Assembly (NCBI GenBank): GCA_963773915.1
Contig: CAVZCY010000003.1
Location: 5,914 to 69,913 of the forward strand
DNA: 64,000 nucleotides
Source of the DNA: an uncultured Acidobacteriaceae bacterium
GTDB taxonomy: Bacteria; Acidobacteriota; Terriglobia; Terriglobales; Acidobacteriaceae
Direction of reading: 5' to 3'
Both the position numbers and the translations under genes were made by a program. The notes below the pieces were generated by a model. The model saw nothing but the letters and a program-made list of their open reading frames with translations, had not been told where the DNA came from and did not search any database. Every line of letters starts with the position of its first letter. The first letter of the stretch is position 1. Shown here piece by piece: positions 26,410 to 56,654 of the stretch.

Positions 26410-26486
26410 CGGGGCGTAGCGCAGTCTGGTAGCGCATCTGCTTTGGGAGCAGAGGGTCGGGGGTTCGAATCCCTCCGCCCCGACCA
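26410..26486 (+). tRNA. tRNA-Pro(TGG), integration target
   Basis: CGGGGCGTAGCGCAGTCTGGTAGCGCATCTGCTTTGGGAGCAGAGGGTCGGGGGTTCGAATCCCTCCGCCCCGACCA. Confidence 0.97.
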
Positions 26487-26699
26487 TTCGAAGCTATAGA
26501 TAATTCAAGCGATATGGCCGATTCCGGCCACGCATCTGCTATTTGCTGCTACAGGCCTCTAGTCGTTTTTGTGACGGTGTGATCCGTGTGGCCCACGGCC
26601 GGCCCTTTGGCTTTGGAACCAATGCAAGAAAGATTGCGAGCGGAGGCAGACGTGGATTTATTGATTCGCAGCCGAAAGGCAAAACGGAAATTCCGTGTG

Positions 26700-29557
26700 A
26701 TGATTATTTTTCGCCTTGTAGGTCTGTTCGCAGCCTTACGCTCTCGCTTCGCATTCCCCCGTCTGTTCACGCCGTTCGATCTTGGGGTCGGCCTCCTAAT
26801 TCTTTCGGCCTGCGCAGCTATCGGGTGTGGAGGCCACGCTGCGCAGGTTGCCCCGCCGGGTAATCCGTTGTCCATCACAAGCACTTCGCTGCCCAGCGGC
26901 GTAGTTGGGACTGCTTACAGCGCAACGCTCGCTGCCACCGGCGGTACGACGCCTTACACCTGGTCGCTGACCGCGGGCACGCTGCCCGCAGGCCTGTCTT
27001 TGAATTCAACTACCGGCGCCATCAGCGGCACTCCGACCGCAACGGCCAGCGCCACGGCGCTCACCCTCAAGCTCACCGATTCCAGCAGCCCCGCACAGTC
27101 GATGTCGGTAAACCTGACTCTGACGATTGCCCCGGTTCCACTGGTCATCAGTACTTCATCCCTGCCCAGCGGCGTAGTTGGGACTGCTTACAGCGCAACG
27201 CTCGCTGCCACAGGGGGAACGACGCCCTACACCTGGTCGCTGACCGCGGGCACACTGCCCGCGGGCCTGTCTTTGAATGCAACGACCGGCGCCATCAGCG
27301 GCACTCCAACCGCAACGGCCAGCGCCACGGCACTCACCTTCAAGCTCACCGATTCCAGCAGCCCCGCCCAGACGATGTCCGTGAACCTGACGCTGACGAT
27401 TGCCCCCGTTCCGCTGGCCATCGGCACTTCATCTCTGCCCAGCGGCTTTGTTGGGACTGCTTACAGCGCAACGCTCGCTGCCACAGGGGGAACGACGCCC
27501 TATACTTGGTCGCTGACCGCGGGCACACTGCCCGCAGGCCTGTCTTTGAATGCAACGACCGGCGCCATCAGCGGCACTCCCACCGCAACGGCCAGCGCCA
27601 CGGCACTCACCTTAGGCTCACCGATTCCGGCAGCCCCGCCCAGACGATGTCGGTGAACCTGACGCTGACCATCGCCCCCGCAATTACTGTTTCTGTCTCG
27701 CCGAAACGTGCCGGCGTTGCCGTTACTCAAACTTTGTCCGTAACCCCAACGACTGATGACACCGCCGGCGTCAACTGGTCCGCGAGCGGATCAAGTTGCA
27801 GCGGCAACGCCTGCGGCAGCTTCTCCTCCGCTCAAAGCGTCACAGGGGTAGCCGTCACTTACAGCGCTCCGTCCGTAGCCGGACTCTACACCATTACGGC
27901 CACCAGCATCACCGACCGATCAGTTTCTGCCACTGTCGCGGTTGCCGTCACAGATCTCTCCGGCGTTACCACATATCACAATAATGTCTCTCGCAATGGA
28001 GCGAATACGCAGGAATACGCGCTTACCAACACGAGCGTCACCACAGCGACTTTCGGCAAACTATTCTCGTGCACGGTCGATGGAGCAGTCTACGCGCAGC
28101 CTCTGTGGGTTCCGAACCTGACCATCTCGTCCACCAAACGAAATGTGGTGTTCGTGGCTACCCAGCACGACAGTCTTTACGCCTTCGACGCGGATTCGAG
28201 CACCAGCCCGTGTACGCCCCTGTGGCACACAAATCTTATCGATTCTGCACATGGCGGCATTTCTGGCGAAACTTCCGTGCCCTCGTCCGGCTCCGGCGCT
28301 CTCGTCGGTAGCGGCTATGGTGATATCGCGCCGGAAGTTGGAGTGACTGGTACTCCGGTGATCGATCTGACAACGAATACGTTGTATATAGTTTCAAAAT
28401 CCGTGATTGCTTCAGGACCTTCCTTCCACCAGCGCCTTCACGCAATCGATCTGGCGACCGGCAACGAGAAGTTCTCCGGCCCTGTCACAATTGCCGCCAC
28501 GTATCCCGGCACCCGCGACGGTGGCACAACAACGACTTTCGTTGCCCGCGGAGAAAATCAGCGCGCGGGTTTGGCACTTGCCAACGGAATTGTGTATATC
28601 GCATGGGCCTCGCATGAGGATACTCCACCTTATTATGGTTGGGTCATCGGGTATAACGCCAACGATCTAGCGCAGGCGAGCGTATTCAACGACTCTCCCA
28701 ATGTCGGCTCTGGGGGCATCTGGATGAGCGGGGGCGCGCCTTCGATCGACTCCTCCGGCAATCTTTATCTCATTTCCGGGAATGCCTACTTCGATGCCAC
28801 GAACTTGTCCGCCCCGAACAACGACTTCGGCGATTCGTTTCTCGAGTTGACCAGCGCCCTCAGCGTCTTTCAATACTTCACGCCGTCCGATCAGGCAACC
28901 GACAACCTCCAGGACAGCGATTTTGGCGCTGGAGGCGCCGCGATTCTTGTCGATCTTCCCGTGAATGGCACCAACCCCACACACCTAGTCATCGGGGGGG
29001 GCAAGGATGGCGCCTTGTACCTGCTTGACCGCGACAACATGGGCGGCCTGGGCGACACCAATGCCTGGCAGGAAACGAATGTCGGCGGCAGTATCTTCTC
29101 CACCGGTGCATTCTGGAACTCGAATTTTTATCTTGCCCCTGTCGGCAGCGCGCTTCATGCGCTTTCTCTCAGTTCCTCTACCGCCAAGTTGAGCTTCTTG
29201 TCTAACGCGACATCCACGTCGTTTGGCTTTCCCGGAGCAACGCCTTCAGTGTCTTCAATGCCAGACAACTCTAACGGCATTGTCTGGGCACTCGATGTCA
29301 GTCAGTACTGCACTCCTCAATCACCCGGCTGCGGCCCCGCAGTAATCCATGCCTACAATGCCACCAACCTCGCCACCGAGCTCTGGAACAGCACGAAAGG
29401 TACCGGCAACACCGCTGGAAATGCGGTGAAGTTTACTGTACCTACTGTAGCCAACGGCAAGGTCTACATCGGCACCAGGGGCAACAATGCCGGAGGCGCA
29501 GATAGCAGCACATCGATTCCCGGTGAACTGGACGTGTACGGCCTTCTGCCCAACTGA
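26700..29557 (+). CDS. Secreted/lipoprotein-like protein with three putative Ig (He_PIG) repeats and a C-terminal PQQ-like beta-propeller; frameshift ~27613
   Basis: LSACAAIGC signal, 3x [26 protein letters not shown]...[17 protein letters not shown], then [39 protein letters not shown]. Start approximate. Confidence 0.8.
26874..27690 (+). repeat. Three intragenic tandem 273-bp (91-aa) repeats
   Basis: Units start at 26874, 27147 and 27420. Near-identical at DNA level. Confidence 0.9.
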
Positions 29558-29693
29558 TCTCCCTTCAACTGCAGGGCCGAAACGAAGCCAATCAAAGGTA
29601 GTCATTCTCGCTCACCTTCAACAGGGTTCAACAAGGTGTCAAAATTGGTTCGGGACAACGGGTCGAGAATTTGGGGTCGCTACAGTACCTCCC

Positions 29694-29975
29694 AAAGGGC
29701 GCTGACGCGACAACGTCTTCGTCGAGCGCATCCGGAGGAAGTCCATCAAGTACGAGCAGGTCTACCTGCATGCCTACGTCGCGGTCAGCGAGGCCAGAAC
29801 TTCCATCGGCTGCTTCCTGGAGTTTTATGACTCCATCCGGCCGCACTCCAGCCTGAAAGCGCAAACGCCCGATCATGTATATTTCAACCGCCAGCCAGAA
29901 TCTATGGCAGCCTAAAAACAAAAACTTCCACTTAAGGAAAAAGCAAAAACTCTCCGAACGACCGGGACCACGTCT
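29694..29975 (+). pseudogene. IS3-family transposase (OrfB) C-terminal remnant with its right end
   Basis: KGR*RDNVFVER / SIKYEQVYLHAY..SEARTSIG.FLEFYDSIRPHSSL..QTPD.VYF. In-frame TGA and a frameshift. TAA at 29913-29915. Confidence 0.8.
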
Positions 29976-30122: not shown

Positions 30123-30451
30123 TGTAGTTGATTTTGTAGCTCTCAAAGCACCCAAGAGCCACATGGATCAACACGCATGGACAGACGTACAATAAACACT
30201 TCAATCAAAAGCGTCTATTATCTCCAGATTTCAATAGGATTCAATAAACCGTTGCATCTGCTTTGGCAGCAGCGGGCCGGGGGTTCGAATCCCTCCGCCC
30301 CGACCATTACTTATCAGCATTTTGCGAGTATCTCAGTCAGCCGATAGGCAGACCCTCCGCTTTCGCGACAGAAGACTTGGTGTTGAAAGCCGCGTCTTCA
30401 TTGGGTTTTCTCTTCTCAATGGATGCAGGGACCGCTACAAAATCGTCTACA
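30123..30451. other. attP-like junction J1: tRNA-Pro 3' core (30254-30306, three mismatches) with inverted 18-bp arm motifs on both sides
   Basis: tgtagttgattttgtagc (30123-30140) and gctacaaaatcgtctaca (30434-30451) are 16/18 reverse-complementary. The arms are homologous to those of J2 and J3. Confidence 0.8.
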
Positions 30452-30539
30452 GTTCAAGATGGGAAGTCCTCTAACTCTTCATCCATGGCGTGATTTGAAT
30501 ACTGATGGGAATTTGACTAGACACAGTTGTTAATGTGAC

Positions 30540-32345
30540 TCACCGAAGGCCCTTGGTAGGACGGACCGGCCGAATCTTCGAGCATGCAACCACGCCTGCG
30601 CCTTCTTCCACGCAATAGAACTGATCGGCCGCAAGGTTCGTCAAAGTGTCTTGGGCTCCCGAAGGCCAGACGATTTCTATCCTGTCAGCCCGAACGTGGT
30701 TTCCAAGGCCGAAATGCAGTCGTAAATCACTCTGCGACATATAGCTCCCGCCGCTTCGTACTTCGTCGGTCTGCGTTAGGGGGCCCGCGATGACTCTGAC
30801 CTGCGCATTCAACGCGAGCCTGTTGCTTCTTGTTCCTTCCAACTCAAGGCTTATCCAGTGATTTTTTGGGAGCCCTTCGGGGCGAAGGATCATCGGTTGT
30901 CCTTCGAGATTTTCGATGACTAAATCGATTCGGCCATCGTTAAAGAGATCTCCTGCGGCCACACCCCGGCTTACTTGCGGAATCTGTAGAGCTTCTCCTG
31001 CAATTTTGCTGACATCTTTGAACTGTCCGTCGTGTTGATTCATAAAGAGTAATTTGGGTTCTTTGTACCTTGACACGAGGGGCTCAGTATCAACCTGCGG
31101 GTAGACATGGCCGTTCACGAGAAATAGGTCTGGCCAGCCTGTGTTATCGAGATCGAAGAAAACATCGCCCCAGCCGACATAGGGCAAGGTGCTCTCCGCG
31201 ATGCCTGACTTATACGACACGTCGGCGAACGATAGATTGCCGTCATTCCGCCATAGTGTGCCGTAGTCCTCGCTGAAGTGGCTCACAAAGATTGACTCGC
31301 GGCCGGTGTGGTTATAGTCCGCCACAGCAATCCCCATGTTAGCTTGCTCATTGCCATCCTGGTTAAAGGCAGTTCCCGAGTTATAACCAATTTCCGAGAA
31401 GGTTCCGTCACCGTTGTTTCGGTATAAGTAGTTCGGGCCGCTATCGTTGGCTACGAACAGATCGATGTGGTCGCCGTTGTTAAAGTGAGACCAAACCGAA
31501 CCGAGGCCTAATAATCCCTGCGCATCAGCCACACCTGCGCTTTGTGAGACATCGGTGAATGTGCCGTCACCGTTGTTGTGATAGAGCGCGTCCGGAGACC
31601 CCGGCAGCCCGCGCGGTCCACATTGAACTTTGATCTTGTGGTAAGTGCATGTAATCTTCGATCCAAATTGCGGAAGGGCCGAGAGATCAAGTTTGGCGTA
31701 GTGCGGAACAAACAAGTCAGCCCAACCGTCATTGTCATAATCACCAAAGGCCGCACCGGTCGCCCACCCCTGATCCTTATCCAAACCAGCCTGCTTCGTG
31801 ACATCGGTGAAAGTTCCGTCTCCATTGTTGCGGTACAACACAACACCATTGAAACAAGTGACGAGAAGATCAGGCCACCCATCGTTGTTGTAATCGCCGA
31901 CGGTGGCTCCCATGGCCCAGCAGGGAAAACCGACCCCGGCTTTGTCGGTGACGTCGGTAAACGTACCATCGTGGTTGTTATGAAAGAGAGCGCTTCGTGC
32001 CTTCTTTCCGGCCAGTTGCATTTCGACGTCAGGCGCGTTCGTGAAGTAGATATCGGGCCAGCCGTCGCGGTCGTAATCGATCAGCGCCACACCTCCACTC
32101 ATCGATTCGACAATGTACTTCTTTTCCGGCGCAGATAGATGATTAAAGTGAATCCGCGTCGACGCCGTGATATCGATGAGCCGAGGGATTGTTGCATGAG
32201 CTTTTGATTCAGGCCGGGCGGAGGCTTTTTGAAGCGATGCAGAGTTATGCGACTGCTGACCGGGCGACGAAGCTTGAAACATAAGGCAAAGAATGCCGCA
32301 AACCACGGTCAGGATCAGTACGAGAGTGCGGATCTTTATCGCCAC
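30540..32345 (-). CDS. CRTAC1/ASPIC-UnbV family protein with FG-GAP/VCBS-like repeats
   Basis: Repeated DYDRDGWPD/DYNNDGWPD/NNGDGTFTDV motifs, C-terminal GGSYMSQSDLRLHFGLG...IVWPSG. Confidence 0.9.
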   Translation of the reverse strand: MAIKIRTLVLILTVVCGILCLMFQASSPGQQSHNSASLQKASARPESKAHATIPRLIDITASTRIHFNHLSAPEKKYIVESMSGGVALIDYDRDGWPDIYFTNAPDVEMQLAGKKARSALFHNNHDGTFTDVTDKAGVGFPCWAMGATVGDYNNDGWPDLLVTCFNGVVLYRNNGDGTFTDVTKQAGLDKDQGWATGAAFGDYDNDGWADLFVPHYAKLDLSALPQFGSKITCTYHKIKVQCGPRGLPGSPDALYHNNGDGTFTDVSQSAGVADAQGLLGLGSVWSHFNNGDHIDLFVANDSGPNYLYRNNGDGTFSEIGYNSGTAFNQDGNEQANMGIAVADYNHTGRESIFVSHFSEDYGTLWRNDGNLSFADVSYKSGIAESTLPYVGWGDVFFDLDNTGWPDLFLVNGHVYPQVDTEPLVSRYKEPKLLFMNQHDGQFKDVSKIAGEALQIPQVSRGVAAGDLFNDGRIDLVIENLEGQPMILRPEGLPKNHWISLELEGTRSNRLALNAQVRVIAGPLTQTDEVRSGGSYMSQSDLRLHFGLGNHVRADRIEIVWPSGAQDTLTNLAADQFYCVEEGAGVVACSKIRPVRPTKGLR

Positions 32346-32375
32346 AGCATGCGTCTTATAACAAATTCCAGTTAA

Positions 32376-33584
32376 TTAGTGTGTCGATGGCTTACCGTCG
32401 GTCTCGGCCGGAAGATCCTGCTGACGCATTTGCCGAAAAACCTTGCCCAGGCTATCTCTCATGGCCTTGTAGCGGGCAAATTCGTCCATTTCGTGCTGAG
32501 CCTCAGCCGTTTTCCCTTCTTGCCGGTAGAGTCCACTCAGTTGATAATGTGCCACGCTATTCGTAGGGTCGTCTTTCACCGCACTTTCCAGGAGAGATGT
32601 CGCGGCCTGGTTGTCGCCGCGCGCGACGAGTAACTTCGCAAGATCGGTCTCCGCATCGGAATCTTTCGGGAACAGTGCGAGAGCCTTCGTGTAGTCTTCT
32701 TTGGCTGCGGGGAAATCCCCCTTGTCCGCCATGATCTCTCCCAATCCGCGCCAGGCCTTTTCGTCGAATTGATTCGACGAGAGGGCGGTTCTGAATTCAC
32801 GCTCCGCCTCGGCCTTCAGCCCAGGATCTGAAGATTCTTTAAGCTGCACGGCTAGTTCAAAGTGGACTCCGGGCAACTGAGGATTAAGACGGATCGCCTC
32901 ACGATACTGCGCAATCGCATTGTCGGAGTCGCCTTGAAGCACAAATTCATCCGCCATCATCATATGCAATTCCGCGGAGTTCGGGGCGGCGAGCGCCATG
33001 CTGAGGAGCGTCTTGTCAACCGTCTGCAAGGAGATCTGATATGCGGCAAAGAGAATTTGAGGGTCTTGTGGTGCGATCTTCTCAAGCTGGACTACAACTT
33101 CAGCGGCCTGGTCCAAATCTCCGGACGCGGAAGCTATCTCGATCAGTTCGAGGCCAGTCTGCTTTTGAATTTTTTCGTCGTCGAGATTAGGGAATGATTG
33201 CTCCAGGTCTCTTTGCGCCGCTGCCAGGTCTCCTGTTCTTTTTTCGGCAGTCCCGAGCAGGGCCTGAATCCTCCACAGCTTCTGATTGAGCTGCAACGCT
33301 GCGCGCATTTCCGAAATCGCTTCAGCGTAGTTGTTTTGGAAGAACAACAGCACCCCCAGGTTCCCCCGGGCATCCACGTCTTGCGGATCGAGCAAAATGA
33401 TCTGCCGGAAGATGGGAATGGCAAGCTGCGGCTTTTGCTCCTGGAGGTATTGCAGCGCTTGATGCTTCAGATCATCGATCTTTTGTTTCGGAGCGGAAGT
33501 ATCTTGCGCAGCAACACAGATTGAGGCCCAAGAAACTAAGATGCAGAAGAGAATCCTCATAGTGAAACGCTTCATTTCTATCAC
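32376..33584 (-). CDS. Exported tetratricopeptide-repeat protein
   Basis: Signal peptide, multiple TPR helices (ARGNLGVLLF, AIAQYREAIRLNP, AHYQLSGLYRQEGK). Confidence 0.85.
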   Translation of the reverse strand: MIEMKRFTMRILFCILVSWASICVAAQDTSAPKQKIDDLKHQALQYLQEQKPQLAIPIFRQIILLDPQDVDARGNLGVLLFFQNNYAEAISEMRAALQLNQKLWRIQALLGTAEKRTGDLAAAQRDLEQSFPNLDDEKIQKQTGLELIEIASASGDLDQAAEVVVQLEKIAPQDPQILFAAYQISLQTVDKTLLSMALAAPNSAELHMMMADEFVLQGDSDNAIAQYREAIRLNPQLPGVHFELAVQLKESSDPGLKAEAEREFRTALSSNQFDEKAWRGLGEIMADKGDFPAAKEDYTKALALFPKDSDAETDLAKLLVARGDNQAATSLLESAVKDDPTNSVAHYQLSGLYRQEGKTAEAQHEMDEFARYKAMRDSLGKVFRQMRQQDLPAETDGKPSTH

Positions 33585-33713
33585 TTACGCCTCAGCGGCA
33601 TTCCGCGCCGCGCTCTTGCCGCAGCATTTATGGGATGGGTTAACGTCCAGTGCTGAGCGCGAGAATACAGGTTGCAACATCCGAAGTCCAGACACCCAAA
33701 ACCTATTTTGCGC

Positions 33714-33764
33714 TTGACAGTCGGAGCGTATGTGGCTAACGTGCTTTTTCTGAAAGCGTTTTCT
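33714..33764 (+). promoter_or_regulatory. Sigma70-type promoter with a downstream LacI-family operator
   Basis: TTGACA (33714-33719), 17-bp spacer, TAACGT (33737-33742). TGAAAGCGTTTTCT at 33751-33764. Confidence 0.6.
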
Positions 33765-33874
33765 TAGCGTGTCCGTTTTGAATTTCCTTTGATCCGCACC
33801 TGCCGGCGGCAACTGAGGAGTTCGGCGACACCCAACGGCAAACGATTCGAGCATCAACGAAGGGAGAAGTAACT

Positions 33875-35578
33875 TTGAAATCGAAATCAGAAGAAACTCT
33901 TTTGCTCACGCGCCGCGACGCCCTCAAGCTTTCCGCAGCAGCAGGATTTGCTTCGGCACTGTCCAGTCCGGCTCATGCCTCCGACAGCATCAAAACCGGG
34001 GTTCATCAGCAAGAGCCTCCCTACTGTTCTACACCTCGCACTGCCATCGCGAATACGCAATATGGCAAAGTGCGCGGCTTTGTTTCAGGCGATGTTTTCA
34101 CCTTTAAGGGTGTTCCTTATGGGGCAACGACCGCAGGTGAGAACCGCTGGCTTCCAGCGAAACCTCCAGCTTCATGGAATGATGAGTATCCCGCTTTAGT
34201 CTACGGCGCGAACTGCCCACAGAATCTGCACACCTGGACCGGAAATGAGCAAACGTTCATACAGGATTGGGACGATGGCTGGCAGAGCGAAGACATGCTA
34301 AAGCTGAACATCTGGACTCCGAGCCTCTCCGGTAAACGCCCAGTGATGTTCTACATCCATGGCGGCGGGTACAGCTTCGGGTCTTCTTACGAATTGCCCT
34401 CGCATGAAGGCGCCAATATGGCGCGCTACCACGATGTCGTGCAGGTGTCGGTGAATCACCGCCTTAACATTCTTGGATTCTTCGATGTCTCCGAGATAGG
34501 CGGCTCTGCCTATGAAGATTCGGTCAACGTCGGCATGACGGACCTTGTTGCCGCACTTCAGTGGGTCCATGAAAACATCGCCAACTTCGGCGGCGACCCC
34601 GACAGGGTGATGATCTATGGCCAGTCGGGTGGCGGATCGAAAGTGACCACGCTGATGGGCATGCCTTCGGCTGCGGGACTCATTCATCGAGCTTCGGCTC
34701 AATCCGGTGGCGGCGGTAATATTCCCACCAAAGAGCAGCAGAGAGAAGTAGCTCGTCAATTGATGAAAGACCTCGGCTTGCAGCCAAACGACATTGCCGC
34801 TCTGCAAAAGATGGCGTGGCCGCAACTGGCGGCTGCGGGCAATGCAGCTGTCGCGAAGATTAATCCGCCCGGACCACCCATGATGGGGCCAGGTGCGCCC
34901 GGCCATCCGCGTGTGGGCTGGTCACCGAGTTTAGACGGCAAAGTCATCAACTGCCGTTCGTTCTTCGATGTCGCACCCGATATTTCGAAGAATGTGCCTA
35001 TGCTCGTCGGCTCGGTGAGTGAAGAGGGCAACCACATGAGCTCGCGGCCCACTGAAGAGCAGTGGCACGCAAACCTCGCAAAAGCCTACGACGATGACAA
35101 GGCAACCGCGATCATTGCCTCTCTGAAGAGGGCCTACCCACAGAAGGCGATCCAGACTCTGTCGTATATCTGCGGAGGCGCCGGCGGTCTGAATGGCCTG
35201 GGAATGCGGAATAACGTGGTAAAGATGGCCAAGTTGAAGCATGACTTGAACGCTGCGCCAGCATACGCGTACTTCTTCCAGTGGCAAACGCCAATTCTCG
35301 ATGGCTTACCGGGCGCGTGGCATACCGCGGAGCTCCAATTCTGCTTCGATAACACCCTGCGCTGTGAACAGGGCACCGGCAACACGCCCGAAGCACAGGC
35401 GCTGGCGAAAAAGATGGCGGCTTCGTGGGCGGCATTCGCAGCGAACGGCAACCCGAACATCCCAGGCTTGAAATGGGAGCAGACGGACCCAGACAGCAAC
35501 AAGACGATGGTATGGGATAACGAGATCCGTATGGAAAACGATCCCCTGGCGGAAGCGCGCAAAATCATTTTGAGCTGA
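33875..35578 (+). CDS. Tat-exported carboxylesterase/lipase type B
   Basis: TRRDALK, FKGVPYG, SEDMLKLNIWTP, HGGG, NHRLN, FGGDPDRV, GQSGG, WHTAEL. TTG start after AGGGAG. Confidence 0.92.
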   Translation: MKSKSEETLLLTRRDALKLSAAAGFASALSSPAHASDSIKTGVHQQEPPYCSTPRTAIANTQYGKVRGFVSGDVFTFKGVPYGATTAGENRWLPAKPPASWNDEYPALVYGANCPQNLHTWTGNEQTFIQDWDDGWQSEDMLKLNIWTPSLSGKRPVMFYIHGGGYSFGSSYELPSHEGANMARYHDVVQVSVNHRLNILGFFDVSEIGGSAYEDSVNVGMTDLVAALQWVHENIANFGGDPDRVMIYGQSGGGSKVTTLMGMPSAAGLIHRASAQSGGGGNIPTKEQQREVARQLMKDLGLQPNDIAALQKMAWPQLAAAGNAAVAKINPPGPPMMGPGAPGHPRVGWSPSLDGKVINCRSFFDVAPDISKNVPMLVGSVSEEGNHMSSRPTEEQWHANLAKAYDDDKATAIIASLKRAYPQKAIQTLSYICGGAGGLNGLGMRNNVVKMAKLKHDLNAAPAYAYFFQWQTPILDGLPGAWHTAELQFCFDNTLRCEQGTGNTPEAQALAKKMAASWAAFAANGNPNIPGLKWEQTDPDSNKTMVWDNEIRMENDPLAEARKIILS

Positions 35579-43952: not shown

Positions 43953-45293
<1,341 letters not shown>

Positions 45294-47511: not shown

Positions 47512-47607
47512 ACGGGTTGACAGAATAAACGCAAACCAAAACAGGACCTGGTACATGTCTGTCAATCGACTCGAATTTCTCGCGGCATCTAAGCCACTAA
47601 TTTCAAT

Positions 47608-48762: not shown

Positions 48763-50035
48763 ATGCGAAGGCAGACCTCCTTGATTCTCGCCCTTGGATT
48801 GGCGTTTCCGGTGGCGACCACTTTAGTTGCCTGTCACACGGCAGATAACAAAGCCGCAACTGTTCCATCCGCAAAAGTTGCCGCAGCGCAGCGGGGCGAC
48901 ATTTCTCATGTGCTCACGCTGGCCGGTCAGTTCCAGCCGTACCAAGTAGTCGATGTGCACCCAAAGGTTAGCGGCTATATGTCGCGCATCAATGTGGATA
49001 TTGGCGACGTGGTTCATCAGGGCCAGACGCTGGCGGTGCTTGAAGTGCCGGAGTTGAAAGCGGAGTTGCAGCAAACAGTATTTCAACTTCAGCAAAGCAA
49101 AGAACAGATCACGCAAGCGCAGCACGAGATCAATCGCGCCGAGGCGGAGCACGCGGCCCTGCACGCTGCGTCAGATCGGTTGAAGCAGGCGGCCGAGGGC
49201 CGGCCGGGGTTGATTGCGCAACAGGAACTGGACGACGCGCAGGCCAAGGACTTGTCGTCGGAGGCGCAGGTAGATGCGGCCAAATCGGCGATGGCGGCGG
49301 CGCAGGAACATGCAAACGCAGCGCAGTCAGACAATCAGCGCATCCAGGCGCTGGAAAACTACACCAACGTCACGGCGCCTCTGGATGGAGTCGTGATCTG
49401 GCGCTATGCAGATACCGGCGCTCTGATTCAGGGCGGCACCAACTCCAACGACCAGACGCTTCCCATCGTCCGCATATCGCAGAGTAATCTGCTCCGGCTG
49501 CGCATTCCGGTGCCTGAGGACGATGTGAAGTACGTTCATGCCGGCGACCAATTGCAGGTGCGCGTCGATGCGATTGGCCGATCCTTCACGGGAAAGATCG
49601 TGCGCTTTACGCGCGACGTGAACTTCGAAACCCGCACCATGGAGACCGAAGTCGACGTGGAGAACAAAGATCTGTCCATTGCGCCGGGAATGTACGCCAA
49701 CACGCTATCTGCAACTGGGGCATGTGACCGGAGTCGTGACGATTCCCGTTGAGGCGCTGGTGCTAAATGGACAACAGGAAACGGTCTATGTGCTCGACGA
49801 CAACAATCGTATTCATATTCGCAACGTCACCGTGGGCCTGCAGGGATCGAAGCTGGCCGAGATCACCAGCGGGCTCAACCCTGGCGACCGAGTGGTGATC
49901 GGTGGCCAGGATAAGTATCAGGAAAACGAAGAGGTCAACGCGCTGCTGACCCCCGAGCCCGCATCGGAGACCGCGCAGCAGACGGGCGGCATGATCGACA
50001 TGAAGGCCGAAACGAGCGATGGAGGCGCGCACTAA
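48763..50035 (+). CDS. RND efflux membrane fusion protein (frameshift ~49707)
   Basis: Lipoprotein-like signal LVAC, VHPKVSGY, VTAPLDGV, LRLRIPVPE, TRTMETE, PGMY, IPVEAL. Confidence 0.9.
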
Positions 50036-53000
50036 TGCCGAAGTTTGCTCTCAGATTTCCCTACTTCATCATCATGCTGTGCCTGCTGGTTTCGCTTGTC
50101 GGTGCAGTCAACATCGCTCAGATGCCGGTGGACCTGTTTCCCAAAATCGATATGCCGGTCGTGGTGGTGGCGACGTTCTACAACGGGATGCCCCCGCAGC
50201 AGATTGAAGCCGACATAACAAATACATTCGAACGATTCTTCACTCTGGGCGCCAACATCGATCACAGCGAGTCACGCTCGCTGACCGGCGTGAGCCTGAT
50301 CAAAATCTATTTCAAGCCGGGCACCGATCCGAATGCGGCGCTGAGCAACATCGCCAATCTGGCCATGGCCGATCTGCGCCGATTGCCGCCGGGAACGCTG
50401 CCGCCGGTGGTGCTGGGCATGGACGCATCAACGCAGCCAGTATGCCTGGTCACGCTGAAGGGGCAGGGACTGAACGAGACCAGCCTGAAGGATCTGGCGC
50501 AGTTCCAGGTGCGCAACCAGATTTCGAACGTGCAGGGCGCTTCTGTGCCGCAGCCCTATGGAGGAACCTACCGACAGATTCAGATTTACGTGGATCCGCT
50601 GAAGATGGAGGCGCGCAACCTGAGCCTGAACGATGTGGTGACATCGGTGAACAGTTCGAACCTGATTTTGCCGGCAGGCGATGTGCGCATCGGTTCAAAG
50701 GACTACAACATCTACGCCAACAGCCAGTTTCCCGATGCGAATTCAATGAACCAGATGCCGCTGAAGTCGGTCGGCAACTCATCGGTGCTGGTGGGTGACA
50801 TTGGCAAAGCGATCGACTCGGGCGCACTGCAATACAACATCGTGCGCATCGACGGACAGCGATCCGTTTACGTGCCGGTCTTCAAGCAGGGCGGCGACAG
50901 CAACACCATCACCATCGTCAACGGAATGAAAGCTGCGATCAAGCATCTGGTCGACATTCCGGAATCGCTGAAAACAGCAGTCGTATTCGACCAGTCGGTG
51001 TTCGTCAAAATGGCGATCGAGAATGTTTCGAAGGAAGCGCTCATCGGACTGGTGCTGACCGGAGTGATGATTCTGGTCTTCCTGGGCAGCCCGCGCGCCA
51101 TGATCGCCGTGGTTCTCTCCGTTCCGCTCTCAATGGTGGTCTGCCTGCTGATCACCGATTACACGGGCGGCTCCATCAACACCATGATTCTGGGCGGACT
51201 GGCGCTGGTCTTCTCCCGACTGATCGATAACGGCGTCATCGTGCTTGAAAACATCTTCCGGCACATGGAGATGGGTAAATCGCCTGAGGTTGCGGCGGAG
51301 GTGGGCGGAACAGAAGTCTCGATGGCGGTGCTGGCGGCCACATTCACTACGTCCATCGTGTTTTTCCCAGTGACGTTTTTCACCGGCGTCAGCAAGTACA
51401 TCTTCACGCCGATGGCGCTGGGCGTTGTGCTTTCGATCTTCGCATCGTACTTCTTCGCCATGACAGTGGTGCCGCTCTTCTGCGCCAAATTCATCCGCCT
51501 GCACGGCGACGTTGAAGGCGACCGAATCCAGGCATAACTTCTTCACGCGCTTCGAGACCAAGTTCAACGAAAAGTTCCAGGCCATGCTGAACTGGTACGA
51601 AGGCCTTGCCATGCGGGCGATGGAGCGGCCTGGCTTTACCGCCGCGGCGATCTTTGGCGGCGTGGTGCTGCTGCTGTTGGTGACGGTTCCCTTCATCGGC
51701 CGCGCATATTTCCCCGCACTGATCCAGGCCAGTTCATCATCGACGTGCGCATGCCAAGCGGCACGCGCCTTGAAGTGAGCAACGACTACATCGCAAAAGT
51801 TGAAGACATCATCCGCAGCGTGGTTCCTCCCAAAGATCTGGGGATGATCGTTTCCAACATCGGCGTCTATCCCGATCTTTCGGCGATCTACACCACCAAC
51901 GCCTCGATGGACACGGCATTTGTGCAGACCAGTCTCAAGGAGGGCCATAGCGTCGGCAGCTATGAGTACATTCGCCGCGTGCAGGAGAAGCTGTCGCGCG
52001 AGATGCCCGAGCTCTCCGCCTATTACCAGGCAGGCGGATTGGTGGATTCGGTCATCAATCAAGGACTGCCGGCTCCCATCGACATTCAAATCAAATCGCA
52101 AAATATGGATAGCTCATTTGCATTGGCCACGCAACTGGCGGCGAAGATCAAGGCGATGCCCAACGTGAGCAATGTGTATATCCCGCAAAGCATCGACTAT
52201 CCCGGTCTCGCGCTGAACATCGACCGCGAGCGAGCCAGCCTGATCGGGCTTTCTGCTAAAGACGTGGTGGACGACGTGATTACTGCGCTCACCTCAGACG
52301 GCATGGTGGCCCCCAGTTATTGGATCGATCCGAAGAGCGGCAACAACTACATGGTCACGGTGCAATACGCGAACAGCTGGATTGACAACATGTCGATGGA
52401 GGATGTGAAGAACATTCCGTTGCGCGGCGTTCGCCCTGCCGGCTACAGCCCAATGCAAACGGGCGGCCAGGCGGATCCATCTGCAACGCAGATGCCCGGC
52501 AGCGACAACTCGGCCGGCTACGTGCCGCTCGGGGCGGTTGCCGATATCCAGCAGATCAACACGCCCACCGAAGTCGACCACAACCAGATTCGCCGCGTGA
52601 TCGATATTTATGTGGCCACCAAGGGCGAGGCACTGCAAGGTGTGGGATCGCAAATCGATCGTCTACTGGCTGATACAAAGCACGACAAAAACACGGTGAT
52701 CGATGTCAGGGGTGCTGTGGTGAGCATGAACCAGGCATTCCACGACTTCGGCATCGGCCTCATCATTGCCATCCTGCTCGTCTACCTGATTTTGATGGCT
52801 CAATTCGCTTCGTTCATCGATCCTTTCATCATCCTGATGGCCATTCCGCCGGGGCTTGCCGGCGTCGCGCTCATCCTCCTCGTCACCGGCAGTTCGCTGA
52901 ACATCATGTCGCTGATGGGAGTGATCATGATGGCCGGCATCGTGGTGTCGAACAGCATCCTCATCGTCGAGTTCGCTGGGATTCTTCACAAGCAGGGCAT

Positions 53001-53262
53001 GGGGTTGAAGGCCGCGGTAGTGGAGTCGTGCAAGGTTCGTCTGCGCCCCATTTTGATGACCTCGCTGGCCACGCTGCTTGGCATGATTCCGATGGCGTTG
53101 GGACTGGAGGCCGGCAGCGAACAGTATGCGCCATTGGCGCGCGCCATCATCGGCGGATTGGCGCTTTCCGTTGTCGTCACCATGTTCCTCGTTCCAGCGG
53201 TGTACCTGGTGATCCATGGGCGCGACGAAGCAAAGGCCGCAGTCGCGGAGGAACAGGCATGA
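50035..53262 (+). CDS. RND efflux permease (two frameshifts, ~51525 and ~51715)
   Basis: MPVDLFPKID, IDNGVIVLENI, FFPVTF, VPLFC, NSILIVEF, RLRPILMTSLAT, PLARAIIGGL. A C-run deletion at ttccccgcact explains the second break. Confidence 0.9.
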
Positions 53263-54647
53263 CTGAACACCTAAGAAGAAAATCGTTCCCTGCCACATGC
53301 ACATTTCTGTTACTGATCTTGTTGCCGTGCGCAGTGCATTCGCAACAGGCGCAGGCGCCAGCGGTGCCAATGCCTTCGCTGCAACTTCCGGCTGCTCAGT
53401 CGCCCACTGAGCCAGTTGCGCCCTCGGGACCGCGGCTGACGCTTGCGGATGCAGAGCGCATGGCGATTGCGCACAACCCAAACATCAGCGTGGCGCGGCT
53501 GATAGCGCTGGCGCAGGCGCAGGTAACGCGCGAAGTGCGCTCTGCCGAACTGCCCACGGTACAGGGCGACCTGACCGCCGTGGGCGCGCACGAAAACAGC
53601 CGCATCACCGCGGGCCTGCTGAATAATCCATCCGTTTATAACCGAGCGGCGGGCGGCTTGTCGGTGAGCCAACTCATCACCGACTTCGGGCGCACGCACA
53701 ACCTGGTGCTCAGCGCGCAATCGAACGCCAAGGCGCAGCTTGAAAACGAGCGAGCCACTGAGCTCGACATCACGCTGACGGTGGATCAGGCTTTCTATCA
53801 GGCGCTGACGAGCCAGGCGGTTCTGAAGGTGGCGGAAGAAACCGTAAACCAGCGCGAGGCGACCGTAGATCAGGTTGGCGCTCTCGCTAAAAATAAGCTG
53901 CGGTCGGATCTCGATCTGAGTTTTGCTGATGTTCAACTCTCTCAAGCAAAATTGCTTTTGCTTGACGCCCGGAATGATGCTGCCGACGCCATGGCCAGCC
54001 TGAACACCGTGTTGGGCTCCGAACAGGATGAGCAATATACGCTCGTGGATGAAACTACTGCCAGTCCTGACCCTGCGCCCGAGGACGCCGACGCTCTGCT
54101 GCAAACGGCGTTCACCGCGCGTCCCGATCTTGCCGCGCTCAACTATAACTACACGGCTGCCCGCCACTTCAGCACCGCTGAGCGCGATCTATGGATGCCG
54201 ACCGTCTCGGCATTGGCTGCGGCAGGAGCCACTCCGGTGCGCGCGGATCAGATTCAATCCTCGTGGTACGGCGCAGCCGGCGCAAACATCAGTATTCCAA
54301 TCTTCAATGGATTTTTGAACAACGCCCGCGCACAGGAGGCAAAGCTGCGCGCGAAAGCAGCCGGTGAACAAGTGAGGAACTTGCGCGATGTGATTGCGCG
54401 CGATTTACGCACCGCGGTCCTGAACGCGCAGAACGCATTCCAGCGCATCGGTGTCACTCAGGAAATGCTGAAAGAGTCGAATATGGCTCTCGATCTTTCA
54501 CAGGCGCGGTACAAGATCGGCTTGAGCGGCATCGTGGAGCTTACCCAGGCGCAACTTGCACAAACGCAGGCGGAGATTGCCTATGCCAATGCCCGCTACG
54601 CCTATCAAACCGCGCTGGCGGTAGTGCGATTCCAGACCGGCCAGTAG
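53259..54647 (+). CDS. TolC-family outer-membrane factor
   Basis: LTLADAERMAIAHNP, ITDFGRT, RPDL, ISIPIFNG, RYKIGLS...ELTQAQL. ATGA overlap. Confidence 0.9.
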   Translation: MTEHLRRKSFPATCTFLLLILLPCAVHSQQAQAPAVPMPSLQLPAAQSPTEPVAPSGPRLTLADAERMAIAHNPNISVARLIALAQAQVTREVRSAELPTVQGDLTAVGAHENSRITAGLLNNPSVYNRAAGGLSVSQLITDFGRTHNLVLSAQSNAKAQLENERATELDITLTVDQAFYQALTSQAVLKVAEETVNQREATVDQVGALAKNKLRSDLDLSFADVQLSQAKLLLLDARNDAADAMASLNTVLGSEQDEQYTLVDETTASPDPAPEDADALLQTAFTARPDLAALNYNYTAARHFSTAERDLWMPTVSALAAAGATPVRADQIQSSWYGAAGANISIPIFNGFLNNARAQEAKLRAKAAGEQVRNLRDVIARDLRTAVLNAQNAFQRIGVTQEMLKESNMALDLSQARYKIGLSGIVELTQAQLAQTQAEIAYANARYAYQTALAVVRFQTGQ

Positions 54648-54779
54648 CGTCGTGAGGATTGCCATGTCATCTCCGTCGTCGTTGGATTCTACCTTTTACC
54701 GGAACGTATCCATATCTCCGCGAGAGGCAATCGTACCGATCATTCTGATGTTGAACTCTATTTCGAGGAGATTGCCACC

Positions 54780-55667
54780 ATGCCAGTGATTGGCGACAGG
54801 CCCGAATTGAACCTGAGAAGCGTTATCTATGCGACAGATTTTTCTCCTTGCTCCAGGAACGCGGGCCTCTACGCCGCTCGCTTGGCCGCCTATTTCTCAG
54901 CGAAGCTTGTGGTGACTCATGCCTTCACACTGGAACAGGCCGCGATGGAAGTTGAAATTGGTGACAGGCAATTAAGCCAGCAGAGAGAGAGCTTGACGCA
55001 TCATCTGTGGACAGAGGCAGATCTTCTGGGAGCACGTTCAATCGATATCATTCCCACGCTCCTTGAAGGCGCTCCGGAGGATGTGATTCCAGCTCTGGCG
55101 GACAGGCTTGAGCCTTCCATGATCGTTCTCGGGACGCATGGCCGAGGCCGGCTCGATCGGGGAATCATCGGTTCGACCGCGGAGAAAATCCTGAGGTCCA
55201 CCCGCTGGCCGGCGCTTACCGTGGGACCTCACGTTCAGCCCTTGTCCTCGCAAACGTTCCCTTTCGAGAGAATTCTTTTTGCCACCGACTTTACTGAGAC
55301 GGCCGCCAATGCTGCCACCTACGCGGTTACATTCGCTGAGGTTTTTGCGGCGAAGATCGATGTGCTCAACGTGATTGAGGACGACGTCATTAAACATCCT
55401 GATCGCTTATCCGAACTTCAGTCCCGCTTCTTCAACGCTCTTGACGCCCTTGTGCCGCAATCTGCCAGAGAGTTCTGCGATCCAAGAACTTTTCTAGCCG
55501 TCGGCGGGGCGCACGACAAAATCCTTGAACACATCAGGGAGCGATCGATCGAACTCCTCGTGCTTGGCATCCGGAAGACTTCGCATATCGGCATGGAGAT
55601 GAGAACATCCGGAGCCTTTCGGATCATCGTAGATGCTCCGTGCCCGGTTCTGACGATCAGGAGTTGA
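54780..55667 (+). CDS. Tandem-domain universal stress protein
   Basis: VIYATDFSPCS, MIVLGTHGRG...GSTAEKILR, ILFATDF, LLVLG, APCPVLTI. Confidence 0.92.
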   Translation: MPVIGDRPELNLRSVIYATDFSPCSRNAGLYAARLAAYFSAKLVVTHAFTLEQAAMEVEIGDRQLSQQRESLTHHLWTEADLLGARSIDIIPTLLEGAPEDVIPALADRLEPSMIVLGTHGRGRLDRGIIGSTAEKILRSTRWPALTVGPHVQPLSSQTFPFERILFATDFTETAANAATYAVTFAEVFAAKIDVLNVIEDDVIKHPDRLSELQSRFFNALDALVPQSAREFCDPRTFLAVGGAHDKILEHIRERSIELLVLGIRKTSHIGMEMRTSGAFRIIVDAPCPVLTIRS

Positions 55668-55695
55668 GGATCGAATTGCTTGGCGGGAGAATTGG

Positions 55696-56112
55696 ATGGC
55701 AACGCGGAAGAAGCGGCCGAGTCACGAGTATCACCACACCGCGATAACGCTGCTTGTCGCACTGTTTGGGGGTGCCTGCGCCTTCTTTGCCGTTGAGATA
55801 TTCCTTCCCGACCTCTTGGAGTTGTACGCGAGTCAGATAGGCATATTCCCGAGATGGCAGATTCATATGGGAGCGACGTGCGTTGACGTCATCACATTCT
55901 TCGTGTTCCTGTTCTTTCTGGAATTGCTCGAAACAAGGTCGCGCTTAACAGCGTGGCGAGCGAGTGCACCGTGGTTGCCTCTCGTCGGGCTCACCTTGCT
56001 GGCAACAATCATCCATATCCCCTTCTACATTGTGATCCTGGCAGGAACCATCTACGGCGTATGGGCCTATCGCCAAACCTCAAGCGTGCGGCGCTCGGCC
56101 CGCCTTTCGTGA
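55696..56112 (+). CDS. Hypothetical small membrane protein (about four TM segments)
   Basis: Hydrophobic segments, GGAG RBS. No recognised family. Confidence 0.55.
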   Translation: MATRKKRPSHEYHHTAITLLVALFGGACAFFAVEIFLPDLLELYASQIGIFPRWQIHMGATCVDVITFFVFLFFLELLETRSRLTAWRASAPWLPLVGLTLLATIIHIPFYIVILAGTIYGVWAYRQTSSVRRSARLS

Positions 56113-56470
56113 ACCGAGAGCGTGCCCATATTTATCGCGTTATTGGTCGCAAATCGCCGAGGGCTTCCTTAAGACGCGATCAATTATTTGGGATCATTTT
56201 CAGCTACTGTTGTATGTTATCTCCCTACCATGAACTGAGCTTGTGTTTTGTGGCAGCCGCATCGAGATGGAGATTCTTGAGCGTTTTGGTGCGTTCTTCG
56301 GGGATCATCGGCCGTCCGTCAGTCACTACTTGGGCAACAACTCGGAACCGTGGCCGTTCACGTTAAAAAGATCAGTACTGATAAGTCGGCTTAGCGGAAG
56401 GAATATGACGAAAATCGTGAATTGCACTGCTTGAAAAGTACCCGAACGGACGCCAACCGAGAATTCCAGC

Positions 56471-56654
56471 TGTAGTCAATTTTGTGCCCGTCAAAGCATC
56501 CAGAAGCTACAAGGATCAACAGGGATCGGCATGAGTGCGGCAAACTTTTCAATCAAAAGCGCTTATTTTCGCTCAATTTCAACAGGTTTCCATAATTGTT
56601 ATGATCTGCTTTGGGAGCAGAGGGTCGGGGGTTCGAATCCCTCCGCCCCTACCA
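56471..56654. other. att junction J3: left arm plus tRNA-Pro 3' core (56604-56654, one mismatch)
   Basis: tgtagtcaattttgtgcc at 56471, 133 bp before the core as in J1. Ungapped match 92/133 to the J1 left arm. Confidence 0.85.

Follow-up and report, generated by a model that had tools for sequence, protein, structure and literature searches.

Integrase-free cassettes stacked at a tRNA-Pro gene of an uncultured Acidobacteriaceae bacterium meet at att-type junctions with conserved arm geometry

How do DNA segments that encode no integrase come to be stacked in tandem at a tRNA gene, and what maintains the sequences at which they meet? We addressed this question in a window of 64,000 nucleotides (64 kb) from an uncultured Acidobacteriaceae bacterium of soil, an organism represented in metagenome contigs only, at a depth of about 4×. 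The array begins at an intact tRNA-Pro(UGG) gene (26410–26486, + strand; ARAGORN, and Rfam tRNA at 69.4 bits), which serves as attB and left end and has a DUF4112 gene, a tRNA-His gene and a hydrolase gene as upstream neighbours. The initial annotation held that the 3′ half of this tRNA recurs downstream and delimits segments of 3,820, 17,372 and 8,976 bp; ARAGORN, Rfam and a repeat search bear this out, with copies of the 3′ 51–53 nt starting at 30256, 47628 and 56604. The 53-nt block (ATCTGCTTTGGGAGCAGAGGGTCGGGGGTTCGAATCCCTCCGCCCCGACCATT) gave 0 matches in 100 shuffles.

The three copies differ in preservation. J1 (30256–30306, +) has three mismatches over the 53 nt, and as one of them (G to C) lies in the anticodon-loop overlap, this junction is probably fixed. 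J2 (47628–47678, +) is the same as the tRNA over the whole block, and J3 (56604–56654, +) has two mismatches. Identity between copies starts at the anticodon arm, where the stem CTGC/GCAG stands on both sides of the 7-nt loop TTTGGGA; inverted core-type sites around a 6–8-bp overlap, as in lambda-type systems, are thus present in the form of the anticodon stem and loop.

Long arms flank these cores. The left (P) arms of J1 (30123–30255, +; nhmmer E = 1.7e-35), which belongs to the cassette on its left and has a TGTAG box at its outer end, and of J3 (56471–56603, +; E = 1.9e-40, among the top matches to the family profile) are identical at 92 of 133 positions without gaps, exactly the figure given at the outset. 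The right (P′) arms of J1 (30307–30451, +; E = 8.7e-40) and J2 (47679–47823, +; E = 7.5e-38), which are the right arms of cassettes 2 and 3, agree at 99 of 146 positions with two gap columns; their distal similarity, also described initially, amounts to 82% over 68 nt. The TGTAGNNNATTTTG box, with at most one mismatch, occurs four times in the 64 kb (0.5 expected by chance), always at an outer arm end, on the + strand in left arms and on the − strand in right arms (30438–30451 and 47810–47823). The reverse-complement motif reported for the right flanks is where it was said to be, at the outer ends of J1 and J2, except that the CAAAAT box begins 131 nt past the CCA end and not 128 nt. At J2, the P arm (47600–47627, +) is truncated to about 28 core-proximal nt, recognized through repeat D2 and alignment, without an nhmmer P match. 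The flank to the right of the J3 core matches no arm family and is presumably the native B′ side.

A different type of right arm follows the tRNA gene itself. This S-type arm of cassette 1 (26487–26575, +) is a diverged 71-nt arm that matches the S profile at 26491–26556 (nhmmer) and ends in a degenerate TGTAG box in direct orientation (TCTAGTCGTTTTTGTGAC, 26558–26575, four mismatches); the flank groups with 33 other right flanks, 4 of which adjoin true tRNA-Pro genes. Within segment 1, a further, decayed junction (29576–29638, +; E = 6.4e-5) retains the half of a P arm nearest the core (profile positions 74–136), after which the core is unrecognizable. The recurring unit is a tRNA 3′ half, a right arm (P′, S or short), variable cargo and a 139-nt P arm. 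The initial annotation counted three elements of one family, but cassettes number at least four in the window, their right arms are of two types (S and P′), and several of the junctions are degraded. The array is partly fossilized, its tRNA-proximal junctions being degraded, and this damage counts against a still-working array in the window. Only cassette 3 (47.6–56.7 kb) has both arms intact, with near-perfect cores, and the same arrangement is found in an independent assembly (L135).

The cargo, as annotated with Pfam, is diverse. Cassette 1 (26576–29575) encodes a He_PIG Ig-domain protein with three 273-nt tandem repeats (D1) and a 683-amino-acid open reading frame (ORF) without assigned function. 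A 69-amino-acid stretch in segment 1 (29706–29912, +; translation ...DNVFVERIRRKSIKYEQVYLHAY...FYDSIRPHSSL...) is probably, judged by its motif, the C-terminal relic of an IS3-like rve transposase. Cassette 2 (30452–47599) encodes FG-GAP/ASPIC and TPR proteins, a carboxylesterase, a LysR regulator, a TonB-type outer-membrane protein, two arabinofuranosidase-like proteins and two esterases. Cassette 3 (47824–56470) carries an RND efflux operon (MFP, AcrB-like and OEP), a tandem-Usp protein and small ORFs; frame analysis indicates that its AcrB-like gene is read in shifted frames. Consistent with the original reading of these segments, no integrase, excisionase, relaxase or phage gene was found by Pfam among all large ORFs, and between 26.4 and 56.7 kb neither a phmmer search of all ORFs of at least 70 amino acids with five recombinase seeds nor tblastn with ICE proteins produced a match. 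Cassettes 1–3 thus have attL and attR flanks, as core repeats with P and P′ or S arms at both ends, and contain no integration or transfer genes in these searches.

Are the arms peculiar to this genome? In the search of relatives that had been proposed, a genome scan revealed the same arms in 6 Terracidiphilus/Acidobacteriaceae metagenome-assembled genome loci, a metagenome scan revealed them in at least 120 peat and soil loci, and the P-arm profile gave 148 nhmmer matches across 126 sources. The exactly conserved arm geometry claimed for the window extends to the family: of 114 sites, 102 have exactly 139 nt between the box and the anticodon loop on the P arm; 19 of 27 S arms measure 71 nt; and 60 distinct P arms align without gaps at a mean column identity of 82%. 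At its cargo-side end, every arm has two tandem TGTAG boxes with a spacing of 12 nt. They lie 139 nt out on P, 71 nt out on S and approximately 131–145 nt out on P′, so that distal arm-type repeats at fixed spacing occur on both arms, as in lambda-type sites. The outer 35 nt or so of P and P′ are mutual inverted repeats that start with TGTAG. Right arms fall into discrete families (P′, about 145 nt; S, 71 nt; and a short type), and the S box is direct, not inverted, and at another distance than on P′. Use of both box geometries by one integrase would be unusual.

RNAalifold found no consensus RNA structure in P or P′ arms, which fits protein-binding DNA. Right arms hold a second, weak inverted repeat that resembles the anticodon arm (in P′, 76% of cells paired versus 30–39% in slid controls), and might act as an additional core-type site, much as DR1/DR2 do in attI. 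All arrays examined begin at tRNA-Pro, with true tRNA genes directly 5′ of P′ or S arms; identity to the tRNA starts at the anticodon loop, with CTGT or CTGC on the P side. Core copies have host-specific T-arm variants, and P arms are unchanged between hosts. The cargo to the right of S arms forms 22 unrelated groups in 30 loci, background cargo identity is at the random level (P arms are 75% identical at the median) and neighbours vary around shared cassettes. As was first proposed, the junctions are att-type and were produced by successive rounds of site-specific recombination at the anticodon loop of tRNA-Pro. With the same arms at more than 100 other sites in related bacteria, a shared gene-shuffling system with an enzyme encoded elsewhere appears likely.

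The junctions might instead be inert. Each segment could descend from an ICE or genomic island that encoded an integrase; its mobility genes would have been deleted and its arms would now decay neutrally, leaving ordinary decayed tandem islands; decay of integrase islands is the accepted origin of cis-mobilizable elements (CIMEs) (PMC5704250). The damage in the window agrees with this (the mismatches of the J1 core, one of them in the overlap; the J2 P arm reduced to 28 nt; the junction at 29576–29638; the transposase relic at 29706–29912; and the degenerate S box), as do core-adjacent integrase genes caught mid-decay elsewhere (frameshifted in L022, reduced to 53 amino acids in L018 and truncated in L029). 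However, random deletion would not leave around 100 independent P arms with an equal length of 139 nt, no indels and a sharp common boundary. Right arms form discrete conserved families unlike the integrase-proximal arm, and integrase fragments occur in none of at least 15 complete cassettes. A very recent spread of a single element is at odds with the median arm identity of 75% and the unrelated cargo.

Selection bears on the same question. In 116 pairs of loci with a linked rve gene, P arms are 77.5% identical compared with 42% at the fourfold degenerate sites of that gene, and this order holds for each of the 116; the test presupposes joint divergence of arm and gene. On this comparison the arms as a family appear to be under purifying selection and not in neutral decay, which contradicts the family-level version of the decayed-island explanation. 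The initial annotation had named arms that always stand beside an integrase in relatives and decay neutrally as the outcome that would speak for ordinary islands; the arms are almost never integrase-adjacent, and the rve-linked comparison points to purifying selection. We consider decayed islands improbable as an account of the array.

The linked rve genes raise another explanation, in which the P-core-P′ unit is a MITE-like element with terminal inverted repeats of about 35 nt and 5′-TG...CA-3′ tips, mobilized by a DDE (rve) transposase; the tRNA fragment would be a passenger, and homologous exchange with the tRNA would account for half-units. The inverted outer ends of P and P′ with their TGTAG start are compatible with such an element, and an rve-family gene lies 14–840 nt from the outer end of the P arm in about 30 of the 120 loci listed, always pointing away from the arm. 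Yet this gene is outside the unit bounded by inverted repeats, with conservation confined to its coding region; S-arm boxes are direct; the split in units falls precisely at the core, and the tRNA halves are host-specific; P′ or S arms directly follow true tRNA genes; and target-site duplications were not seen. The confinement of all copies to tRNA-Pro arrays refutes the idea, which we regard as very improbable. A MITE or IS of the rve superfamily was rejected as a class assignment: inverted repeats are present, but the boxes of S arms have the direct orientation, the core divides the units, rve lies outside the unit and copies are not dispersed.

Which enzyme, then, could act on these arms? 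Among the loci listed, the 14 kb to the left of each P arm encode no recombinase; a phmmer search seeded with recombinases gave none adjoining a P′ or S arm; and at least 15 complete cassettes of 1.6–17 kb contain no recombinase, not even an integrase fragment. In the first eight P′ arms examined, the tRNA-proximal position was occupied by cargo in all eight. Where integrases were seen, they always stood at the beginning of a neighbouring element, and integrase-free units outnumber integrase-bearing ones by about 15 to 1. One type of tyrosine integrase, of 398–404 amino acids, is encoded directly after tRNA-Pro together with an HTH_17 Xis and T4SS genes in three loci (L128, L129 and L132) and directly after P-core junctions in four others (L025, L042, L087 and L131). 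This ICE integrase is specific to tRNA-Pro and uses the same core in tandem with P-core junctions, and the ICE arm that was read, the proximal one, has tandem GTGATACC repeats and not TGTAG boxes. The same repeats occur on both att arms of an unrelated phage, so the ICE enzyme is probably not the box binder. The integrase that the initial annotation proposed to look for in arm-bearing loci did not emerge: in the window cassettes and about 0.9 Mb around 127 related loci, no gene was found for a cognate enzyme of both core and arm sites, and no integrase has demonstrated or even predicted specificity for the TGTAG boxes.

A host tyrosine recombinase might act at the anticodon arm instead, with no ICE involved, in an IMEX-like or integron-like manner; candidates would be a dedicated chromosomal integrase or the nearest tyrosine recombinases in the window, an XerD-like protein (9133–10152; TIGR02225, 312.7 bits; subfamily NF001399 above cut-off) and then a frameshifted XerC-like gene (to about 11187), 16 kb upstream of tRNA-Pro. 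Their presence, the constant lack of a recombinase in cassettes and the anticodon-arm-like second inverted repeat in right arms lend this some appeal. Against it, the Xer pair is housekeeping-like and unlinked to tRNA-Pro in two of the ICE loci (L129 and L132), and the fixed spacing of the distal boxes indicates a heterobivalent integrase instead. Xer recombinases have no domain for arm binding and use dif-like sites of 28 bp, which the tRNA-Pro core does not resemble. Involvement of the Xer proteins is unlikely, and we give a chromosomal recombinase of any such kind only a small chance.

The explanation that we favour, and hold to be reasonably probable, is a tandem array of CIME-like, non-autonomous, integrase-free cassettes, with tyrosine-recombinase crossover in the anticodon loop and maintenance in trans. 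We infer that the arms bind an integrase, that it acts in trans and that cassettes still move. Cleavage and rejoining would take place in the 7-nt anticodon loop and be catalysed by a putative heterobivalent (lambda-type) tyrosine integrase whose gene lies outside the cassettes, with the symmetric anticodon stem as core sites and the TGTAG boxes as arm-type sites. Repeated integration into any existing core copy would yield stacked cassettes with P-core-P′ hybrid junctions, and recombination between two cores would release one or several cassettes as a circle.

More tentatively, Acidobacteriaceae may possess a dedicated integron-like platform for gene capture at tRNA-Pro, in which a trans-acting, arm-binding integrase would insert and excise the members of a large, ancient population of non-autonomous, multi-gene cassettes with modular lambda-style arms and exchange them between genomes. 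This integrase would not be encoded on the cassettes, and possibly not on the known ICE either. Such a platform would combine one common 139-nt P arm with several alternative right arms, all with terminal TGTAG boxes, and would shuffle glycoside hydrolases, TonB-type receptors, efflux pumps, RHS toxins and toxin–antitoxin modules. It would constitute a distinct class of mobile element that is to ICEs what MITEs are to IS elements.

How does the array compare with established systems? The sublocation classes of tRNA-integrating islands that Williams reportedly described in 2002 include a lambda/P4-type crossover in the anticodon loop. The array shares with this type a duplicated block from the anticodon arm, a symmetric stem as possible core sites and distal tandem repeats that resemble arm-type sites; in lambda/P4-type islands, however, the usual neighbour of the tRNA-proximal arm is the integrase gene, and here it is cargo. 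IMEX that use dif through XerCD, such as the CTX/TLC/RS1 arrays of Vibrio cholerae and the gonococcal genetic island, are likewise integrase-less elements in tandem at one chromosomal site with a recombinase encoded elsewhere, but the target here is a tRNA anticodon arm with long arms and not dif.

Integrons, too, collect promiscuous cassettes that lack a recombinase at a single place in the chromosome, with conserved recombination sites on either side of hypervariable cargo, and are served by a tyrosine recombinase, which for the tRNA-Pro array would act in trans. Unlike integrons, the array has no adjacent integrase gene, and so not the combination of intI, attI and cassette promoter; it has double-stranded lambda-style att sites with arms of 70–145 nt and a tRNA core in place of folded single-stranded attC hairpins, its cassette ends being long, asymmetric arms with no RNAalifold consensus fold and no attC-type palindrome. 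Cassettes of 1.6–17 kb contain several genes in their own orientations, with no common promoter evident. The earlier description of the locus as functionally like an integron array is an analogy only, and the CIME, a concept that it did not name, is closer (PMC5704250).

Tandem accretion of CIMEs, ICEs and IMEs is known, for example, from the ICESt1/CIME elements of Streptococcus thermophilus and from Streptomyces pathogenicity islands (PMC5704250). CIMEs have been described as sporadic decay products of one ICE, with the arms of that ICE (PMC5704250), whereas the tRNA-Pro family comprises more than 100 distinct cassettes with seemingly selectively maintained, indel-free arms in several right-arm classes, unlike the arm of the sole ICE integrase found at the site. 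Nevertheless, the CIME with tandem accretion is the closest established concept (PMC5704250): both have attL and attR flanks without integration and transfer genes, both form tandem arrays by site-specific integration at an att site in the 3′ end of a tRNA gene, and in both integrase-bearing ICEs reside at the same target site.

The window's intact tRNA-Pro(UGG) gene lies at 26410–26486 (ARAGORN and Rfam), and its 3′ half recurs three times downstream, as reported in the initial annotation. These copies, or cores, are located at 30256, 47628 and 56604, in junctions J1, J2 and J3, and comprise the last 51–53 nt of the gene, starting from the 5′ strand of the anticodon stem. They are spaced at 3820, 17372 and 8976 bp and carry 3, 0 and 2 mismatches to tRNA-Pro, respectively; shuffled window sequence gave no comparable match. 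The left (P) arms of J1 (30123–30255) and J3 (56471–56603) align without gaps at 92 of 133 identical positions, as had been described, and the right (P′) arms of J1 (30307–30451) and J2 (47679–47823) are identical at 99 of 146. On its left side J2 keeps only the 28 core-proximal nt of a P arm, and the right-hand flank of J3 matches no arm family. The TGTAG box at the outer arm ends (TGTAGNNNATTTTG) occurs four times in the window, exclusively in that position and with 0.5 occurrences expected by chance; left arms carry it in direct orientation, right arms inverted. Behind the tRNA-Pro gene itself is a right arm of another type, S (26487–26575), which clusters with the S family, including four other true tRNA-Pro flanks, and has a degenerate box (TCTAGTCGTTTTTGTGAC). 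The array reads tRNA.S, cargo 1, a decayed P.core, an IS3-like tail, P.core.P′ (J1), cargo 2, p.core.P′ (J2, in which p is the truncated P arm), cargo 3 and P.core (J3).

Pfam searches of all substantial open reading frames (ORFs) in the three segments (cassettes 1, 2 and 3) returned cargo only, in agreement with the earlier description of the segments as integrase-free. The cargo includes an Ig-repeat protein, FG-GAP/ASPIC and TPR proteins, esterases, LysR, a CarboxypepD_reg/OMP_b-brl_4 receptor, arabinofuranosidase-like proteins, an RND efflux operon and Usp. With its core copies, arms, box and cargo-only ORFs, the region as a whole had been described accurately.

In the window, the tRNA-proximal part of the array has an older, fossilising appearance; the distal end is potentially competent. 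Cassette 1, the GC content of which is near that of the host, holds a dead P.core junction (29576–29638; nhmmer E = 6e-5) and the tail of an IS3-like transposase (29706–29912). Its first gene, a He_PIG Ig-domain ORF, contains three tandem 273-nt repeats (26864–27682; 100%, 90% and 72% identity). The J1 core carries a G-to-C change within the anticodon loop that should block exchange with other cores. Cassette 3 has near-perfect cores, a complete P′ arm and a P arm that is among the top-scoring ones. The acrB-like gene in this cassette switches frame twice within around 200 nt (51440–51800). Exact-protein look-ups with three window proteins, two of them without a match, led to one independent assembly (L135) and to no strain polymorphism. 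The order of segment 2, J2 and segment 3 recurs in L135, and because the cassette 3 region of that assembly also has many split genes, long-read indel errors are as likely a cause of the acrB-like frameshifts as pseudogenisation. For excision joints, contigs from four metagenome runs were placed on 24–44 kb (depth of around 4×, contigs of less than 1.5 kb). To the right of J3, two tandem 68-nt direct repeats (62613–62748; 91% identity) overlap the 5′ end of a TonB-type receptor ORF (59222–62710, minus strand) and extend into the spacer before a GFO/IDH ORF (62774–63988, minus strand).

Related loci are numerous. A one-genome-per-species scan for a core, a gap and CAAAATNNNCTACA found six, all in Terracidiphilus or Acidobacteriaceae metagenome-assembled genomes. 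In three of these (L001, L003 and L004), which have the tRNA-His/tRNA-Pro synteny of the window, a true tRNA-Pro leads directly into a P′ arm and cargo; the remaining three are P-core-P′ hybrids. Ordinary genes (Big_5, cytochromes b/c, GH2/GH31/DUF2961, a permease and a TonB-type receptor) adjoin the six P′ arms, and L003 contains a complete 5.2-kb cassette (tRNA-core-P′ ... P-core) with cytochrome genes only. When metagenomes were scanned for the core-proximal part of the P arm together with the anticodon arm, at least 120 peat and soil contigs matched. Arm-built profiles, an approach that the initial annotation had proposed, yielded 148 P-arm matches in 126 sources. Cassettes often carry large RHS/YD-repeat toxin genes at their P end (around 12 loci: L039, L047, L086, L089, L094, L111, L125, L131 and others). 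The apparent near-universality of these genes (66 loci by single-linkage clustering) came from spurious ORFs that overlay the arms or ran antisense to rve, a DDE-transposase-type gene beside some P arms. A small gene, ‘YSDEF’, at the outer end of the P arm was also rejected, as it is conserved DNA only, with stop codons in every locus. Scans of viral contigs gave one P-core site next to prophage-type genes (IMG/VR contig L007, 1–8610): immediately to the left of its P arm are a terminase, DUF2924 and a large serine recombinase, along with an IS110 transposase. The tRNA-Pro half at this junction has a different T arm, indicating a different host.

Clustering of the 200 nt after each core separated the right arms into families: S (34 members; 71 nt, then a direct TGTAG box), P′ (13 members; around 145 nt, box inverted) and a short arm (around 100 nt, box inverted), together with an integrase-proximal arm and many unclassified flanks. 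A native tRNA flank was rejected as the origin of S, because the sequence beyond it falls into 22 unrelated groups across 30 loci and because P-core junctions, too, can be followed by S; S is an element arm and not simply the native flank. The general unit is a core, right arm and box, then cargo, then a box and P arm before the next core, in arrays that start at tRNA-Pro. L065, for example, reads tRNA.S - 4.4 kb - P.core.P′ - 4.8 kb - P.core. P′ arms also contain an imperfect inverted repeat with a stem and loop like those of the tRNA anticodon arm (CTGCTTTT..CAG; alignment columns 41–73, 30346–30379 and 47718–47751 in the window). In this repeat 76% of cells are paired, compared with 30–39% in slid controls, and four pairs are changed on both sides; it may be a secondary core-type site. 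A similar GCATCTGCTTTTT element is present in S arms.

Arm geometry is strictly maintained. Of 114 P arms, 102 have the box exactly 139 nt from the anticodon loop, and 19 of 27 S arms are 71 nt long. An alignment of 60 non-redundant P arms is essentially gapless over 139 columns (82% mean column identity), with strongly conserved blocks separated by short variable stretches. The reading of the P arm as a structured RNA was rejected, as RNAalifold gave no pairs and Rfam shows only the four tRNAs of the window. For 116 pairs of loci with an rve gene just left of the P arm, we compared the non-coding arm (77.5% identical) with the fourfold degenerate sites of the linked gene (42%, near saturation); the arm was the more conserved in 116 of 116 pairs. 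Neutral relics would account for the local damage in the window, but this reading explains that damage only and leaves unaccounted for both the indel-free conservation of the arms across the family and the signal of selection. The outermost 35 nt or so of P recur inverted in P′, and each copy has two TGTAG half-sites 12 nt apart, a layout that would be expected of arm-type integrase sites.

Cores at P-core junctions have several T-arm variants that match the tRNA-Pro of different hosts, while the P arm is constant. Identity to the tRNA starts at the anticodon loop, and the CTGT or CTGC half-stem comes from the P side. Where left cargo is alike and right cargo unlike, the P arm tracks the left cargo (around 0.85 for P and 0.81 for cargo). 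These patterns fit strand exchange in the 7-nt anticodon loop, with the symmetric stem providing the core sites, as is typical of tyrosine integrases that target anticodon loops. Crossover at the box instead of the core was considered for L103 and L125, which are 98% identical right of the junction and differ in left cargo; it was rejected as cargo variation, because homology begins around 45 nt outside the P arm.

The initial annotation had raised the question of whether arms elsewhere adjoin an integrase. Searches reaching up to 14 kb to the left of the P arms, and at least 15 complete cassettes of 1.6–17 kb, yielded no tyrosine or serine recombinase. Recombinase genes occur only where a new element opens, directly right of a core. 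Loci L025, L042 and L087 have an intact 398-amino-acid tyrosine integrase; in L022 it is frameshifted, and in L018 just 53 amino acids remain. Other relics are present in L029 and L056/L127. This integrase family (2814 proteins at E ≤ 1e-30) is found directly behind DUF4112 and tRNA-Pro in L128, L129 (GCA_000421065.1, ATWD01000001.1) and L132, which are syntenic with the window. Because an HTH_17 excisionase-like gene and type IV secretion genes (SLT, CagX, TrbI and VirB4) follow the integrase in L131 and Edaphobacter dinghuensis (L134; BMGT01000004.1), we assign it to an integrative conjugative element (ICE). In L131, an RHS cassette leads through a diverged P-like arm and core into the integrase; tblastn searches with ICE proteins placed ICE genes near P arms right of cores only. 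The 10-kb flanks analysed at the ICE loci take in the integrase-proximal end of the element. As the cassettes share the site of the tRNA-Pro ICE and stand in tandem with it, their situation is one of accretion, that of cis-mobilizable elements (CIMEs), which are flanked by att sites and lack integration and transfer genes. In Edaphobacter dinghuensis, a 23-nt piece of the tRNA-Pro 3′ end survives between two ICE-type integrase genes that stand head to head (8496–11206), one of them split; this arrangement suggests an inversion or nested integration.

The integrase-proximal arm of the ICE has tandem GTGATACC repeats and no TGTAG boxes. In an unrelated phage (IMG/VR contig L136), the putative att region, which adjoins the integrase gene, is flanked on either side by tandem GTGATACGAAAAGTGATACG repeats (896–915 and 1084–1103). 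The GTGATAC arm-site motif seems common to a wide group of integrases and, because both the ICE arm and the phage carry it, the TGTAG boxes probably belong to an integrase other than that of the ICE.

In around 30 metagenome loci (for example, L041, L059, L064, L082, L086 and L097), the P arm has an rve/HTH_32 DDE ‘transposase’ gene a short way to its left. The gene reads away from the arm in every case, often with a ParE-type toxin–antitoxin pair between, and no clear insertion-sequence ends were found at it in these loci. We rejected rve as the recombinase or owner of the TGTAG repeats because its coding block alone is conserved, its distance to the arm varies and it is outside the repeat-bounded unit. 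The TG...CA inverted termini and the frequency of rve as a neighbour would favour a MITE-like or DDE mechanism. It is contradicted by the S box, which is direct, by units that break exactly at host-specific cores, by their confinement to tRNA-Pro arrays and by rve, which lies outside the unit. A chromosomal recombinase, Xer-like or dedicated, is a possible agent of cassette movement. Within the 64 kb, tyrosine recombinases are limited to an intact XerD-like gene (9133–10152; 339 amino acids) and, in tandem, a XerC-like gene (to 11187) that is readable only across two or three frames, owing to frameshift or sequencing errors. This pair, around 16 kb upstream of the tRNA-Pro array, looks like housekeeping genes.

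Few bacteria are as abundant in soil as Acidobacteria, and the dynamics of their accessory genomes are poorly understood; the system is of real interest to specialists in mobile elements and soil microbiology. If the cassettes are mobilized in trans, one tRNA locus would be an exchange point common to Terracidiphilus, Edaphobacter and relatives for carbohydrate-degradation, transport, efflux and toxin genes, and integrase-free, att-flanked elements could form a self-sustaining, selected family and not debris. The strictly spaced arms provide a ready, testable substrate for finding a new integrase specificity, and intact two-armed cassettes could serve as natural att reporters.

The literature searched contained no description of this tRNA-Pro cassette system. 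The accretion of att-flanked, integrase-free elements at a tRNA is itself already known as the CIME concept (PMC5704250). What appears to be new is the scale (at least 100 distinct cassettes), the modular arm set kept by selection, the excess of integrase-free over integrase-bearing units (around 15:1) and the fact that the cassette arms do not match the sole ICE integrase found there.
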